Below, piece after piece: positions 75 through 4,982 of a DNA stretch of 64,000 bases. The translations under genes were made by a program, and so were the position numbers. The stretch lies in IMG/VR virus record IMGVR_UViG_3300032280_000753, positions 77,403-141,402 of that record; one strand, given 5' to 3'. The DNA is from a virus. Taxonomy: Duplodnaviria; Caudoviricetes. How positions within the stretch are numbered: the first letter of the stretch is position 1; each line of letters opens with the position of its first letter. Under the pieces are notes generated by a model, which was given only the letters and a program-made list of their open reading frames with translations, did not search any database and had not been told where the DNA came from.

Positions 75-2123
75 TCACATTACGAAAACTTTACCAATAG
101 ATGCACCAAGAATAATTTCTAAATCACCTTCTATTTCCAAAGCAATACTTTCCAGTTCTGATGTGTTGATTGCTTCACGGGCTTCTTCATCTTTACTGTA
201 ACGAGTTTGTTTGCGACCCCAACCTGCAATTCCAGTAATAATAGATTGTGGCAATGGATTAAACGTAATCTTACCAGTTAAAAGATATTGAGCCAATAAC
301 TCATAAGCAAACTCATACCAATTACGCATTTTATTGTCACGAGCACTCTTCATCGTGCCAAGTTGTTGAGCTACATATTTTAATATTTTGTCTCGACCGG
401 CATTACCTTGGAAATCATATGTTTTGCCATAAACATCAATTCCATAAACTTCTTTTAGTATATCTGCGATACGTTTACGCAAATCTTTAATAAATTCTTG
501 CCATTTCTCCGCTGGAAATCCTCTTCCCCTTGCGAGAGCATGACCTAAACGATGTGCCAATATCCATCCAGATGACATATAACGTTCAGCACCCGTGTTA
601 CTTGTATATATAATCGTTATTGTGTTGCCGTCAGGATCTGGAATTTCATCAGCAGTAAGTTTCATCTTGTCTCTTACGAAACTCATATCAACTAAACCGA
701 CTTCTCTAAACTGGGATTTGTTAACTCTTGGATCGTTAACAAGATACATATCAAAATCAAATGGAGTTTTTTCCCATTGTCGTTTAATCTTTTCTACACC
801 TCGTGGAGACGTTAAGATTTTTCTATCAACATCTCCGAAAGAAGAACGCCGACCCCAATCTCCAACAGTCTTAAACTGTCTGATCGCCATTTCATCTACT
901 TCTTCTGAGAATAGACTTTCCATCAATTTTTCAAGATTAGTTTTATTTTCTTTTAGCATTTCTTCGAATTTTTCTTTTTCACGATTTGCGATTGCAATTC
1001 CAAGTTCTCTTCCGCTTAGTTCTGGAAATTCATTGCTTGAAACTGTTGGCTCATATTCCAAAAATGATTGAATTGTTTTATTTGATATTCCCAAGGCTTC
1101 GGCAAAATATTTCAATGATGCATCTTTTAATCCACTAATTTTATATATTTTTTTCAATTTTAAAGCTATTTCCGGAGAAATGTTTTTGAAGTCGAGTAAA
1201 AATTGAACCTGTCTGATTTCATCTCCAGTATATTTTGCTTTATTTAGTTTTATAGCTACAGCTTTTGCATCATTGTTTTGCAATAAAAGTGCTAAAGCTA
1301 CTGGGATATCACTTGTTTCTGAATATTCTTTGTTAACAACCAGTCCTGGGAATATTTGCTCCCATAGATTGTAACGTTCTATCAGTTGATAAAAACTAAT
1401 AGGACTAATTGCAGATTTTATTCCTTTTAAGAATTCATCTCTTATTCTTTCCCCTGATACTCCTTCTAAAGAATTATCATCGGATATTGCTTCATCTGCT
1501 TCTTTATCTAATTTAGTCCCAAAACGAGCAGCAAATCTTAATGCTCTTAATATTCTTAATCTATCTTCATCAAATCTTTCTTTTGCATTGCCTACGGTTT
1601 TTACAACTTTGTTTTCTATGTCTTGTATGCCGCCTACATAGTCAACAATCTCTTTATTTGAGATATCATAAAAAAGAGCATTCATTGTTAAATCCCGACG
1701 ATTGACATCTTTTTCAATTGTTGCAAATTCAACACTATCAGGTCTTCTGCCTTTTCCTATGTCCGTTCTAAAAGTAGCGATTTCATAATCATTTCCTTCT
1801 GGAGTGATTATTTTAACAATACCAAATGCCCTACCCAATTCTAAAACTCTATACTCTGGATAAGCTTTTAGAATTTCTTCTACTTCATCTGGAGTAGCAT
1901 TCGTGGTTACATCAAAATCTTTAGGAGATTTACCAAGTAATGCATCTCTTACAGAGCCACCTACTAAATAAAAGTCTTTTCCAGAGCTTTTAAAAATATC
2001 TGACAATGTTTCTAAATCAGTCGGCAAAGTAATTTCAAATTTTTGTCTTACTTGTTCTGATAGTATTGTAGATATGTTTAATTCTTGCAGAAGTTTTACA
2101 AGATTAGTTTTATTAATTGCCAT
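75..2123 (-). CDS. cca: Class II tRNA nucleotidyltransferase (CCA-adding enzyme) fused to a ~290-aa C-terminal domain of unknown function
   Basis: Motifs GGSVRD...KDFD (catalytic DxD), RRDLTMNAL, EDRLRILRALRF and ERIRDEF. The GRRF poly(A) polymerase signature is absent. The extension after ~aa 390 contains AHRLGH. Confidence 0.9.
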   Translation of the reverse strand: MAINKTNLVKLLQELNISTILSEQVRQKFEITLPTDLETLSDIFKSSGKDFYLVGGSVRDALLGKSPKDFDVTTNATPDEVEEILKAYPEYRVLELGRAFGIVKIITPEGNDYEIATFRTDIGKGRRPDSVEFATIEKDVNRRDLTMNALFYDISNKEIVDYVGGIQDIENKVVKTVGNAKERFDEDRLRILRALRFAARFGTKLDKEADEAISDDNSLEGVSGERIRDEFLKGIKSAISPISFYQLIERYNLWEQIFPGLVVNKEYSETSDIPVALALLLQNNDAKAVAIKLNKAKYTGDEIRQVQFLLDFKNISPEIALKLKKIYKISGLKDASLKYFAEALGISNKTIQSFLEYEPTVSSNEFPELSGRELGIAIANREKEKFEEMLKENKTNLEKLMESLFSEEVDEMAIRQFKTVGDWGRRSSFGDVDRKILTSPRGVEKIKRQWEKTPFDFDMYLVNDPRVNKSQFREVGLVDMSFVRDKMKLTADEIPDPDGNTITIIYTSNTGAERYMSSGWILAHRLGHALARGRGFPAEKWQEFIKDLRKRIADILKEVYGIDVYGKTYDFQGNAGRDKILKYVAQQLGTMKSARDNKMRNWYEFAYELLAQYLLTGKITFNPLPQSIITGIAGWGRKQTRYSKDEEAREAINTSELESIALEIEGDLEIILGASIGKVFVM

Positions 2124-2155: not shown

Positions 2156-2189
2156 AAAAGAAAAACCCCGATACTTTTAATATCGGGGT
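2156..2189 (-). terminator. Rho-independent terminator ending the tRNA/ncRNA transcript
   Basis: Perfect 9-bp stem ACCCCGATA/TATCGGGGT with a 7-nt loop, followed on the minus strand by TTTTCTTTT. Confidence 0.85.
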
Positions 2190-2191
2190 CG

Positions 2192-2385
2192 AAAAGTGAT
2201 AGTGTAGTCCTGATTTCATCAGATGGGTTAATCCTCCATCGGTGTCTACTTCGCTGCTATCACAACGAGCCTTCCAGGCTTTGGGGCTTTTTTTACGGAA
2301 GCTACTCCGCTTCATTCATAAGGAAACCAACCTTATTAGTCATACAGCTTATATGACACGTCAAACTCCGAGACGTGGAGTGGAA
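2192..2385 (-). ncRNA. Candidate structured ncRNA B (family unassigned)
   Basis: About 190 nt with no credible ORF, richer in GC than its flanks. Consecutive stems CACGUC/GACGUG, GUCAUA/UAUGAC, AUAAGG/CCUUAU, GCGGA/UCCGU and AGCC/GGCU, then a multibranch domain closed by GUGAUAG/CUAUCAC directly before the terminator. Confidence 0.6.
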
Positions 2386-2413: not shown

Positions 2414-3058
2414 ATGATAAAAATACAATGCACTTGCGATTTTTGCAATCAATCTTTCTTAAGGGAAAAAAAACAGTTTTATAAAAAACGTAAAAATATT
2501 TTTTGTAGTATTGAATGCTCCAATCAATATTATAACAAAGCAGTTATAACAGAATGCGGACATTGTAAAAAAACAGTTATCAAAAAACTAACAGAATATA
2601 AATCTTCAAAATCTGGCATGGTATTCTGCAACCATTCATGTTCTGCGACTTACAACAATACTCATAAATCTAAAGGAACAAGAGTATCTAAACTTGAAAT
2701 ATTCCTACGAGAAGAAATTACTAAAGAATATGCACAATTAGATATTCGTTATAACGAAAAAAATGCTATTAACTCTGAGCTTGACATATACATACCATCA
2801 CTCAAGCTTGCTTTTGAGCTAAATGGAATATTTCATTATGAACCAATATATGGTTCTGATAAGTTGGAAAAAATACAAAACAATGACAATCGTAAAATGC
2901 AAGCTTGTTTAGAACAGAACATTGAGTTGTGCATTATTGATACTTCATCTTTATCATATTTTAAAAAAGATAAAGCTTTGAAATATTATCAAATCGTTAA
3001 AAACTTGGTTGATGCAAAACTGCCAGGGCTGGGATCGAACCAGCGCCCATTCCGTTAA
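2414..3058 (+). CDS. Putative free-standing homing endonuclease (Zn-binding repeats plus a Vsr/DUF559-like PD-(D/E)xK domain)
   Basis: Two CxxC...FCxxxC repeats and the C-terminal motif ELDIYIPSLKLAFELNGIFHY. The start is more likely ATG 2414 (ATATTTA motif 5 nt upstream) than GTG 2375. The 3' end overlaps tRNA-Asn on the opposite strand. Confidence 0.7.
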   Translation: MIKIQCTCDFCNQSFLREKKQFYKKRKNIFCSIECSNQYYNKAVITECGHCKKTVIKKLTEYKSSKSGMVFCNHSCSATYNNTHKSKGTRVSKLEIFLREEITKEYAQLDIRYNEKNAINSELDIYIPSLKLAFELNGIFHYEPIYGSDKLEKIQNNDNRKMQACLEQNIELCIIDTSSLSYFKKDKALKYYQIVKNLVDAKLPGLGSNQRPFR

Positions 3059-3091
3059 CAGCGGAACGCTCTTCCTCTGAGCTACCTGGCA
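3020..3091 (-). tRNA. trnN: tRNA-Asn(GTT), no encoded CCA
   Basis: Cloverleaf: acceptor TGCCAGG/CCTGGCA, D arm GCTC/GAGC, anticodon arm TTCCG-CTGTTAA-CGGAA, T arm GCTGG-TTCGATC-CCAGC, discriminator G. Confidence 0.95.
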
Positions 3092-3171
3092 ATATAAACC
3101 CAGCATATCATACATCGCACATACTATATACTGAATTCATAACAATGATAGATACAAGTTCCATAAACATT

Positions 3172-3494
3172 ATAAAGTAGGCTTGCTTGCTTAACGCTTC
3201 TATCTGCGTTCTCTTTCCCGAGAAGGGGCTTTGTCACCATTGCTTTTTAGAAAGGAACACCTAAACCCTCATGGTTAGTCAGGTCGCTTCTGACTATCTC
3301 TAATCATCATGTTAGAGCTTATAATATATTATTTCCGATTTACAAGATTGCTCTTGATTTTCCCCAACCAGCATTATAGACCCAAATATTAAATTAGTGT
3401 GCTGGAGGCTACTTACGGCTCCTTTTATCCCATTGCCTTATCGGACCTCAAAGACGATGAACGGTCCATCGGATAGGATAGAAAACTTATCATT
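3172..3494 (-). ncRNA. Candidate structured ncRNA A between tRNA-Ala and tRNA-Asn (family unassigned)
   Basis: About 320 nt with stems UAUCCUAU/AUGGGAUA, GGACC/GGUCC, CCAGCA/UGCUGG, CAAGA-GCAA-UCUUG (GNRA loop), CUCUAA/UUAGAG, UAGUCAG/CUGACUA, ACCAU/AUGGU, UUCUC/GAGAA and AACGC/GCGUU. Confidence 0.6.
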
Positions 3495-3506
3495 TTTTAA
3501 AGAACA
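3495..3506 (-). promoter_or_regulatory. boxA-like antitermination element
   Basis: TGTTCTTTAAAA lies immediately downstream of tRNA-Ala and resembles the rrn boxA (TGCTCTTTAACA) in both sequence and position. Confidence 0.5.
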
Positions 3507-3509
3507 ATT

Positions 3510-3580
3510 TGGATCGGGTGAGAATCGAACTCACAAGTGCGCCGTGCAAAGGCACCAGTTTCCCATTAGCTTACCGACCC
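3510..3580 (-). tRNA. trnA: tRNA-Ala(TGC), no encoded CCA
   Basis: Acceptor GGGTCGG/CCGATCC with the G3:U70 alanine identity pair, anticodon loop TTTGCAC, T arm GTGAG-TTCGATT-CTCAC, discriminator A. Confidence 0.93.
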
Positions 3581-3597
3581 GTTTAACTTACTCAATA

Positions 3598-3626
3598 AAT
3601 ATAGTGGAGCAAGTTAAGTTTGTAAA
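3598..3626 (-). promoter_or_regulatory. sigma70-type promoter of the tRNA-Ala/ncRNA operon
   Basis: TTTACA-17 bp-TATATT. Confidence 0.7.
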
Positions 3627-3714: not shown

Positions 3715-4542
3715 TCACTCCCCTCCCTTCTTTGCAATTTCCTTAACCTTCTTGCCACCAGGAATACGAACATCGCTATTTAGCAGCTTTTGATTGCGAC
3801 TCTGAACATAGGTGAAGTTCTGAAAATCATTGTGAACTTCATCAAACATCTTCTCTGCTTCATGTGCAGTATGAACATTCCCAATACGATTACGATAGGT
3901 TTCAAGCTTTGCAGTAAGACTTGCAACACTCATGGCAATGTCCATGATAGCCTGGGTATGCTGGGCACGCTTTGCCATAACAAACTCATTAACACTATCA
4001 CTATCAAGAGTAGCCTTTAGTTCAGCAACACGACGACGCTTAAGATCAAGCCATGCGTTTTCATACTGCTTATAAAGATACCTGTAAAGCTTATCGTGAT
4101 CTGTGTTGCTGCCCCAAGTATTTGTTACGTTATAACGAAGGAAATTGCGAACGGAACGCTCTGCATATGCCATACCATTAGGAGCAAATGCAATAACGGG
4201 ATCATCGTGATTAAATGAATTCGTGCTGGAATTAATGGGATAACGAATAACGTGTCCAACGTTGGAGTTGACATATCGGAACGTAACAGAATTAATTGTA
4301 TGATTACCCCACTTGATATTCTCAAAGGTAAGAGTTCGTCCAGCCTGATCATCAATTAGATTATCCATGATGCTATTACCGCCCCAACGATATAGACCCC
4401 GCCGTGAACGAAACTTATTCAGATACTCAATCTGCTCAAGCGTAGTCTTTGATGTAAACTTTTCCTCAGAACAAATACGTTCAAGTAGATTGCTATTGTC
4501 GATCTTAAAAATGGACTTAGGCATATTGTTTTCTTTCTTCAC
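3715..4542 (-). CDS. Hypothetical protein (275 aa, C-terminal coiled coil)
   Basis: Long ORF with a 4-nt overlap with the upstream gene; no recognisable motif. Confidence 0.7.
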   Translation of the reverse strand: MKKENNMPKSIFKIDNSNLLERICSEEKFTSKTTLEQIEYLNKFRSRRGLYRWGGNSIMDNLIDDQAGRTLTFENIKWGNHTINSVTFRYVNSNVGHVIRYPINSSTNSFNHDDPVIAFAPNGMAYAERSVRNFLRYNVTNTWGSNTDHDKLYRYLYKQYENAWLDLKRRRVAELKATLDSDSVNEFVMAKRAQHTQAIMDIAMSVASLTAKLETYRNRIGNVHTAHEAEKMFDEVHNDFQNFTYVQSRNQKLLNSDVRIPGGKKVKEIAKKGGE

Positions 4543-4982
4543 TTAACAGGGGAACAGTAATGACGGGGACTGAGATTTTTGTTCAACTGGATCCAGCCAA
4601 TCTTTTCGTTACAGAGAACCTTGATTTGATAGGCTTCGCAAAGATCATGCGTCGTATTATTAGTGCCGATAATGGTTTTATAGTCAGGCTTTCCAAGTAG
4701 GATAAAGATAGAACCCTTATCGATACGTGTAAAAAATATCTGTTTATTGGGGTAATCTATTAGATCATTACCTCGCCAACGAACATTAGTGCGTCGGCGT
4801 CTCTTACGATTAGTTTCTATAAGTTCAATCTTTGCGCTGGCGATTGCTACAGCGACATTAACTTGGTAAATCCCGCCCATCTTCCAGAAACGTTTGCCGC
4901 CTGGAATATGATCAATATGAGACAACCGCCCACGTTGAGGCAGCTTTTCTGCTATAACGATAGGACTATACACGGGGATCAC
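4539..4982 (-). CDS. Hypothetical protein (147 aa)
   Basis: GTG start overlaps the upstream stop (GTGA); same strand as its neighbours. Confidence 0.6.
   Translation of the reverse strand: MIPVYSPIVIAEKLPQRGRLSHIDHIPGGKRFWKMGGIYQVNVAVAIASAKIELIETNRKRRRRTNVRWRGNDLIDYPNKQIFFTRIDKGSIFILLGKPDYKTIIGTNNTTHDLCEAYQIKVLCNEKIGWIQLNKNLSPRHYCSPVK

Follow-up and report, generated by a model that had tools for sequence, protein, structure and literature searches.

A predicted pseudoknotted RNA of a new family, encoded between tRNA genes in a small clade of uncultured jumbo phages

What kind of RNA occupies the 417-nt spacer between two tRNA genes of a phage tRNA operon, and does it stand alone? The question is raised by a 64,000-nt stretch of DNA (hereafter the window) whose terminase and baseplate wedge protein genes identify it as belonging to a tailed phage. 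CheckV rates related contigs of 89 and 53 kb as 24% and 14% complete, respectively, which implies genomes of ∼350–450 kb and hence jumbo phages. Genes for tRNAs, tRNA synthetases and tmRNAs have been described in jumbo phages (PMC7162821). The initial annotation had placed an unassigned structured RNA, RNA A, at positions 3172-3494, and had suggested that it and a second RNA, RNA B, are either two paralogues or the two parts of one large GOLLD-like RNA interrupted by tRNA-Asn and a nuclease gene. The gene order that it gave for the minus strand is borne out by the features of the locus:

3598-3626, minus strand: sigma70-like promoter, TTTACA-17 nt-TATATT (consensus scan, 10/12; a pattern match only)
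3510-3580, minus strand: tRNA-Ala(UGC), without encoded CCA (ARAGORN; Rfam tRNA, 49.3 bits)
3093-3509, minus strand: spacer between tRNA-Ala and tRNA-Asn, 417 nt
3481-3509, minus strand: A/U-rich, unstructured leader with a boxA-like word
3147-3480, minus strand: RNA A core, two domains, at least 14 helices, three of them long-range (alignments A2 and A4)
3093-3141, minus strand: optional 3′ terminal hairpin, directly upstream of tRNA-Asn
3019-3092, minus strand: tRNA-Asn(GUU) (ARAGORN; Rfam tRNA, 66.9 bits)
2375/2414-3058, plus strand: antisense HNH-type homing-endonuclease ORF (PHROG HNH/homing-endonuclease matches)
2195-2359, minus strand: RNA B (alignments A3, A6 and A8)
2164-2190, minus strand: intrinsic terminator, end of the operon (terminator scan)
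75-2123, minus strand: CCA-adding enzyme gene

Read along the minus strand, the order is promoter, tRNA-Ala, RNA A, tRNA-Asn, antisense ORF, RNA B and terminator. RNA A is thus encoded between tRNA genes of a phage tRNA transcription unit, and relatives keep that order. In the window its borders are the 3′ end of tRNA-Ala upstream and the 5′ end of tRNA-Asn downstream, both flanking tRNAs being intact according to ARAGORN. The core spans ∼335 nt between the leader and the 3′ hairpin; the interval first proposed does contain the RNA but cuts off the last ∼25 nt of the core, that is, the 3′ strands of helices H7 and PK2. The word in the leader that had been read as boxA (GTTCTTTAAAAA, window 3494-3505) is identical to GCTCTTTAACAA at 10 of 12 positions, but a score of 9–10/12 is reached in only 5 of 13 homologues, and a conserved boxA was rejected as not family-wide.

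Relatives were gathered through neighbouring proteins and conserved words of the spacer. Twelve further distinct copies of RNA A were found (L001, L031, L042, L033, L035, L034, L046, L032, L044, L045, L047 and L048), and the conserved structure sought in relatives is present in them. With the window, the set comprises 13 sequences (eight IMG/VR contigs, four metagenome-only contigs and the window itself) from perhaps 8–9 lineages, and the copies are from 98% to ∼70% identical to the window. RNA A is single-copy in each contig. Eleven of the 13 copies lie directly 3′ of tRNA-Ala or its decayed copy, and in relatives RNA A is followed by tRNA-Asn or by homing-endonuclease leftovers of it. The upstream tRNA-Ala is missing in L045 and L048, which makes RNA A a unit independent of tRNA-Ala. 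At L034:8950-9022 and at the same place in L046, tRNA-Ala has decayed, has a non-standard T arm and is not called by ARAGORN, and RNA A is kept.

The distribution is narrow. Two motif scans covering 185,579 prokaryotic species, with one genome per species, yielded no RNA A, and a blastn search in distant mode of 50,697 GenBank phage records returned matches to tRNA-Asn only and none to RNA A. Progressively looser motif scans of viral, metagenome and genome contigs recovered the same lineage together with chance matches (L041, L049-L051). A covariance model of the RNA A 3′ domain, R1, found nothing in the whole contigs of four relatives chosen by CCA-enzyme similarity (L002, L003, L005 and L023). 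A family of 13 sequences limits both the statistical power and the generality of the results that follow. A protein-coding remnant was considered and discarded: there is no conserved ORF in RNA A, the stop-free stretches of 40–84 aa differ between copies, and tblastx against all loci is empty.

The short stems that had been noted in RNA A exceed chance, as judged from covariation across the 13 homologues; folding energy alone is silent, the value for the 417-nt spacer being not significant (z = −1.24). RNAalifold applied to 11 sequences gives 59 pairs, 25 of which show compensatory changes. The structure was completed by hand and then counted on alignments A2 and A4, with controls in which the 3′ partners were slid by 1–3 columns. 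In A2 (75 pairs, 15 helices), 94.7% of cells are paired compared with 33–45% in the slid controls, 32 pairs carry double changes (4–11 in the controls) and the covariation score is 0.36 (0.04–0.08 in the controls). On four of five measures the observed value is reached by none of 500 shuffles; the slid controls are the fairer comparison, since relatedness inflates the shuffle statistics. Extending the alignment to 13 sequences by adding L047 and L048 (A4; 73 pairs, 14 helices) leaves 93.0% of cells paired against 31–46%, and 36 pairs with double changes against 7–16.

The alignment also holds 75 G-U cells but only 10 A-C cells, an excess which indicates that RNA A is read on the strand of the tRNAs. 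Compensatory changes, strand-specific G-U pairs and the lack of a conserved frame together point to a structured non-coding RNA, and on the strength of the aligned sequences RNA A is almost certainly real, conserved, covarying and pseudoknotted. The assignment of the region as an unassigned structured RNA is thereby upheld, with covariation across 13 homologues and no Rfam family. The modelled fold is made of the following elements, all on the minus strand:

3426-3480, minus strand: 5′ domain, stacked P1, P2 and P3 (covariation)
3476-3480/3426-3430, minus strand: P1
3471-3475/3431-3437, minus strand: P2
3463-3468/3442-3447, minus strand: P3, whose loop carries UCAUCG (3455-3460)
3410-3425, minus strand: junction, with the L1 5′ strand AAAGGA (3420-3425) and the invariant CCGUAAGUA (3410-3418)
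3362-3409, minus strand: M1, variable-length hairpin, inner helix 3400-3405/3368-3373
3343-3356, minus strand: M2, hairpin with a GCAA tetraloop, CAAGA-GCAA-UCUUG
3276-3317, minus strand: H3 and H4 stretch
3312-3317/3298-3303, minus strand: H3, loop UGAUGA (double changes in 4/6 pairs)
3290-3296/3276-3282, minus strand: H4, loop AAGCGAC near-invariant (double changes in 4/7 pairs)
3237-3274, minus strand: H5, outer helix 3273-3274/3237-3238, inner helix 3261-3266/3245-3250
3147-3232, minus strand: 3′ module, with the invariant AAAGCCCC, S2, H6, H7 and the PK2 3′ strand
3220-3224/3209-3213, minus strand: hairpin S2
3206-3208/3195-3197, minus strand: hairpin H6, loop GAUAGA
3186-3190/3154-3158, minus strand: helix H7

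The stacked helices P1, P2 and P3 covary throughout, with versions such as GGACC/GGUCC, GGAUC/GAUCC, GAACC/GGUUC and GAAUC/GAUUC. The M1 helix is present in every homologue with differing sequences, extending to 10–11 bp in L035 and L047; its columns are 73–76% paired, a lower count that stems from poor alignment in this stretch. M1 is flanked by invariant AGUA on the 5′ side and GAAAA on the 3′ side, which, judged by eye, resemble the sequence signature of a bulged-G (loop E) module. Relative to L001, which is 98% identical, the window carries six clustered C-to-T changes within 12 nt (3397-3408); they sit in the 5′ strand of M1, where pairing is kept through G-U, and could be a recombination patch or the result of local deamination.

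The GCAA tetraloop hairpin of the initial annotation exists as M2, and its stem covaries in relatives (CAAGA/UCUUG, GAAC/GUUC, AUAAC/GUUAU and CAAGAGU/ACUCUUG), the loop being of the GNRA type in only some members. In H5 all six inner pairs change on both sides, and its loop forms the 3′ strand of L1. S2 and H6 were invariant until L045, L047 and L048 supplied compensatory changes, and H7 changes from G-C to A-U in five sequences. The 3′ terminal hairpin has an MFE of −17.3 kcal/mol (z = −4.2) in the window and occurs in most copies; it is missing in L032, L044 and L047, and L045 and L048 have hairpins of different sequence in its place.

Three long-range helices, L1, K1 and PK2, are predicted to tie the 5′ domain (P1-P3, M1 and M2) to the 3′ domain (H3-H8). 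L1 forms between the junction strand AAAGGA (3420-3425) and the loop of H5, UCCUUU (3251-3256). Its pairing is complete (100%) in the 13 sequences, all six of its pairs change on both sides, and it occurs in five complementary versions (AAAGGA/UCCUUU, GUCAAUCG/UGGUUGAC, AACGAG/CUCGUU, ACAAAAGG/CCUUUUGU and AAGAAAG/CUUUCUU). K1 is a kissing helix between the P3 loop UCAUCG and the H3 loop UGAUGA, with 6–9 bp in all 13 sequences compared with 3.9 bp in shuffles, and with one compensatory pair. PK2 pairs the H6 loop GAUAGA (3199-3204) with the 3′ tail UCUAUC (3147-3152), and its sixth pair switches from A-U to U-A in three sequences. Mapped on this fold, several unpaired words stand out, the invariant CCGUAAGUA, GAAAA, UCGG and AAAGCCCC and the near-invariant AAGCGAC. 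A helix closing the 5′ leader on the 3′ tail was rejected by eye, as it is not conserved and competes with PK2.

RNA A belongs to a new family, outside every described one. At the gathering threshold, Rfam 15 reports only tRNAs in the window. At E≤10 it places nothing on RNA A, whether in the window, in the loci of five to six relatives or on the contiguous A/tRNA-Asn/B arrangement of L044, a natural locus free of the insert. In particular, there is no GOLLD, ROOL, group I, RNase P or tmRNA match on RNA A, and the ARAGORN tmRNA detector finds none there. The GOLLD lead is unsupported, no GOLLD or ROOL match being obtained at E≤10 in the window, in five relatives' loci or on the uninterrupted arrangement. 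Search sensitivity is not the issue, because tRNAs, tmRNAs (102–125 bits) and group I introns (62–67 bits) are detected in the same loci.

The kind of RNA is nevertheless one already known, that of ornate phage non-coding RNAs placed among tRNA genes, as exemplified by GOLLD, ROOL and T4 RNAC/RNAD. GOLLD (RF01998) is likewise a pseudoknotted phage non-coding RNA encoded beside tRNA genes, and its transcript can contain tRNAs; it exceeds 800 nt, however, compared with ∼335 nt for RNA A, and gives no covariance-model match at the thresholds tried. ROOL (RF03087) shares with RNA A a phage or prophage origin, multiple pseudoknots and the lack of a known protein partner, and is often found near tRNA islands, but RNA A does not match its model at E≤10, is shorter and is confined to one clade of uncultured jumbo phages. 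T4 RNAC and RNAD lie in the T4 tRNA gene cluster, which also holds the homing endonuclease gene segB, and are made with the tRNAs; they are simpler RNAs of ∼120–140 nt, whereas RNA A has ∼335 nt and three long-range helices. RNA A resembles this type in lying inside a phage tRNA transcription unit. RNAC and RNAD are described as small stable phage-encoded RNAs of unknown function (PMC9697503). Group I introns (RF00028) are similar to RNA A in size, have a pseudoknotted core and occur in this homing-endonuclease-rich phage tRNA region, but RNA A does not match their model and interrupts no gene.

The region downstream of RNA A is variable. The antisense HNH-type ORF (2414-3058) has been inserted here and does not belong to the RNA; it overlaps the tRNA-Asn gene by its last 40 nt. 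The tRNA-Asn of the window is intron-less, and the ORF lies between it and the 3′ stub of a second tRNA-Asn copy (CCACGTCTCGGA, 2367-2378) just before RNA B. In four relatives, a group I intron sits in the tRNA-Asn anticodon loop (L001:866-1148, L045:17-212, L047:3192-3390 and L048:9901-10098; Rfam, 62–67 bits), and in L031 (9815-9935) an insert of ∼50 nt in tRNA-Asn replaces the intron. HNH ORFs also lie beside the tRNA-Asn of relatives, with stop codons that overlap the tRNA 5′ end, and stubs of 15–25 nt of a displaced tRNA-Asn copy are retained there. Such a pattern resembles the exchange of cassettes under the action of homing endonucleases. L001 and L031 carry a truncated tRNA-Asn beside RNA A, with an HNH ORF after it on the same strand.

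On the other side of the operon, a 147-aa protein (4539-4982, minus strand) is the only gene that always adjoins RNA A. The protein, a candidate partner of RNA A, combines an arginine-rich patch with the invariant motif IPGGKRFWK; it belongs to no Pfam or PHROG family, and its AlphaFold model (mean pLDDT 69) has no PDB match at E≤0.001. A 275-aa neighbour, likewise without a Pfam or PHROG family, is missing in L045 and L048. The neighbourhood further includes a gene for a class II lysyl-type (lysyl-tRNA-synthetase-like) synthetase and that of the CCA-adding enzyme. The latter is 682 aa long, and relatives of 35–57% identity match only residues 1 to ∼390, so that a C-terminal extension of ∼290 aa is specific to the closest relatives. 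Genes for tmRNA are found in L031 (3516-3869), L032 (2687-3044), L045 (3481-3836) and L048 (3165-3521), the tag of the first two being ANDSSYALAA; the 64-kb window yields no tmRNA with either ARAGORN or Rfam. A conserved tRNA-like gene (L034:15597-15678, L044:12468-12548, L046:3990-4071 and L048:7560-7641), for which ARAGORN reads a four-base anticodon (ttta) and gives no assignment, may encode a suppressor or frameshift tRNA.

Taken as a whole, RNA A is probably a previously unclassified, stand-alone structured non-coding RNA of a small clade of uncultured jumbo phages, one that would be freed by tRNA processing and act in trans. It would be transcribed from the promoter upstream of tRNA-Ala as part of one operon that runs through to the terminator after RNA B, and host tRNA-processing enzymes, following the established pathway of tRNA maturation, would release it. 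Trimming of the tRNA-Ala 3′ trailer would make its 5′ end, and RNase P cleavage at the 5′ end of tRNA-Asn would make its 3′ end; only ∼4 nt separate the PK2 strand from the start of tRNA-Asn in L032 and L044. RNase P cannot make this end in L001 and L031, where tRNA-Asn is truncated. The 3′ terminal hairpin may protect the processed RNA.

Once released, RNA A would most likely act in trans through a fixed three-dimensional shape, as a ribonucleoprotein or an RNA-only particle. The neighbouring tRNAs, lysyl-type synthetase and CCA enzyme, and the tmRNA of relatives, suggest a translation-related role, in which RNA A might, in infected cells, bind some component of the translation or tRNA apparatus as a platform or decoy. 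On this evidence from the neighbourhood, we put at roughly even the chances that RNA A, as such a platform or decoy, has a part in trans in how the phage handles tRNAs or ribosomes.

How RNA B relates to RNA A bears on this reading. RNA B is predicted to be a separate conserved structured RNA that ends the operon: its eight copies have a mean column identity of 90%, with double changes in 10 of 56 pairs, it has no Rfam match, and the intrinsic terminator always lies at its end. It is not the leader of the CCA-enzyme gene, which adjoins it only in the window, L001 and L008. One of the two relationships first put forward, that of paralogues, survives as a tentative possibility in a modified form that is compatible with the stand-alone reading, namely that the 3′ domain of RNA A has in RNA B a remote, shortened paralogue. 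R1 aligns RNA B end to end with 9.7 bits, placing three hairpins in order, AAAGCCCC, a 5-bp hairpin, the CGN...GCG hairpin with its GAUAG loop, the enclosing helix and CUAUCA, with the words in register; GAUAG and CUAUC are invariant in both families.

The hint is one-directional, however. The R1 alignment has an E-value of 0.0027 when 261 nt are searched, 0.01 for 1 kb and 0.67 for the entire window, where RNA B ranks third and an unrelated site outscores it. RNA A is missing from the 35 matches at E≤10 of the reciprocal search with R2, the covariance model of RNA B, an nhmmer profile of RNA A finds no RNA B, and local sequence alignment of the two is not significant (p = 0.53 against dinucleotide shuffles). 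The colinearity of the motifs was, moreover, noticed after the fact. The structural alignment of A against B that the initial annotation had proposed gives a weak match with R1 and none in the reverse direction.

A further reading would give RNA B a part in the function, with RNA A being a new class of large functional RNA in jumbo phages, either a ribozyme or a ROOL/GOLLD-like RNA-only assembly that acts on tRNAs or ribosomes during infection, and RNA B a shortened 3′-domain paralogue that cooperates or competes with it. GOLLD and ROOL have recently been shown to build RNA cages; we regard this combination as unlikely.

An alternative to action in trans is a role in cis, RNA A being a platform for processing or antitermination, or else a leader governing tRNA-Asn maturation or the expression of the inserted endonuclease genes. 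Its invariable position inside the tRNA transcription unit would fit such a role, as would the boxA-like word after tRNA-Ala in some members and the same-strand HNH ORF downstream in L001 and L031. Yet known sites of processing or antitermination get by with far less than the ∼335 nt, three long-range helices and numerous unpaired invariant bases of RNA A, which stays constant while its downstream neighbour varies between intact, intron-containing and truncated tRNA-Asn with HNH. As the boxA-like word is also not conserved across the family, we consider a cis-acting RNA A decidedly improbable and retain the trans-acting RNA as the preferred reading.

The other relationship first suggested, in which RNA A and RNA B are two halves of one GOLLD-like RNA with a tRNA, and in the window also a nuclease gene, in the linker, is very improbable. 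It draws on the ancestral order of L032, L044 and L046, where the antisense ORF is absent, tRNA-Asn abuts RNA B, and A, tRNA-Asn and B follow one another without any other insert; even this uninterrupted arrangement, as noted, matches neither GOLLD nor ROOL. The two RNAs are not halves of one molecule because each occurs without the other. RNA A is present in L031, where the body of RNA B is deleted and the terminator kept, and in L047, where RNA B is not found; the RNA B model, whose positive controls worked, detects no RNA B in the whole contigs of either. Conversely, L008 has RNA B and lacks RNA A, with an HNH gene after tRNA-Ala instead. L035 is silent on this point, since its contig ends 190 nt after RNA A. 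In GOLLD, by comparison, the 5′ and 3′ domains are always found jointly, on one transcript of more than 600–800 nt.

Nor do the two sequences show an excess of complementarity or of shared words. The longest A-B complementarity is 11 bp, compared with a shuffled mean of 11.5. The word AAAGCCCC, which had been pointed out as common to both RNAs, is indeed present in each, but its sharing is at chance level: there are 4 shared 8-mers against 1.9 expected, and at least one is shared in 76% of shuffles. With both measures at chance, we reject the reading as a single RNA interrupted by tRNA-Asn and a nuclease gene.

That RNA A is a decaying, functionless remnant of a mobile ribozyme such as a group I intron, as the introns and HNH genes at the flanking tRNA-Asn of relatives in this homing-endonuclease hot spot might suggest, is scarcely credible, given that true introns a few hundred bases away are readily scored and RNA A has no group I match, that compensatory changes in most helices indicate selection for the fold, and that RNA A is single-copy and fixed in position in all contigs.

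Few natural RNAs of ∼335 nt have several long-range pseudoknots together with many invariant unpaired bases, and where the role of so complex an RNA is understood, it is that of a ribozyme, a riboswitch-like sensor or the core of a ribonucleoprotein. RNA A would represent a third, unrelated and shorter class in the genomic niche of GOLLD and ROOL, the phage tRNA operon. Its small size suits it to probing and cryo-EM, and further data can now be searched with a covarying alignment and two covariance models. RNA A gives an independent handle on why phages place ornate RNAs among their tRNAs, and on whether this placement is tied to tRNA supply, to tRNA-targeting host defences or to the takeover of ribosomes.
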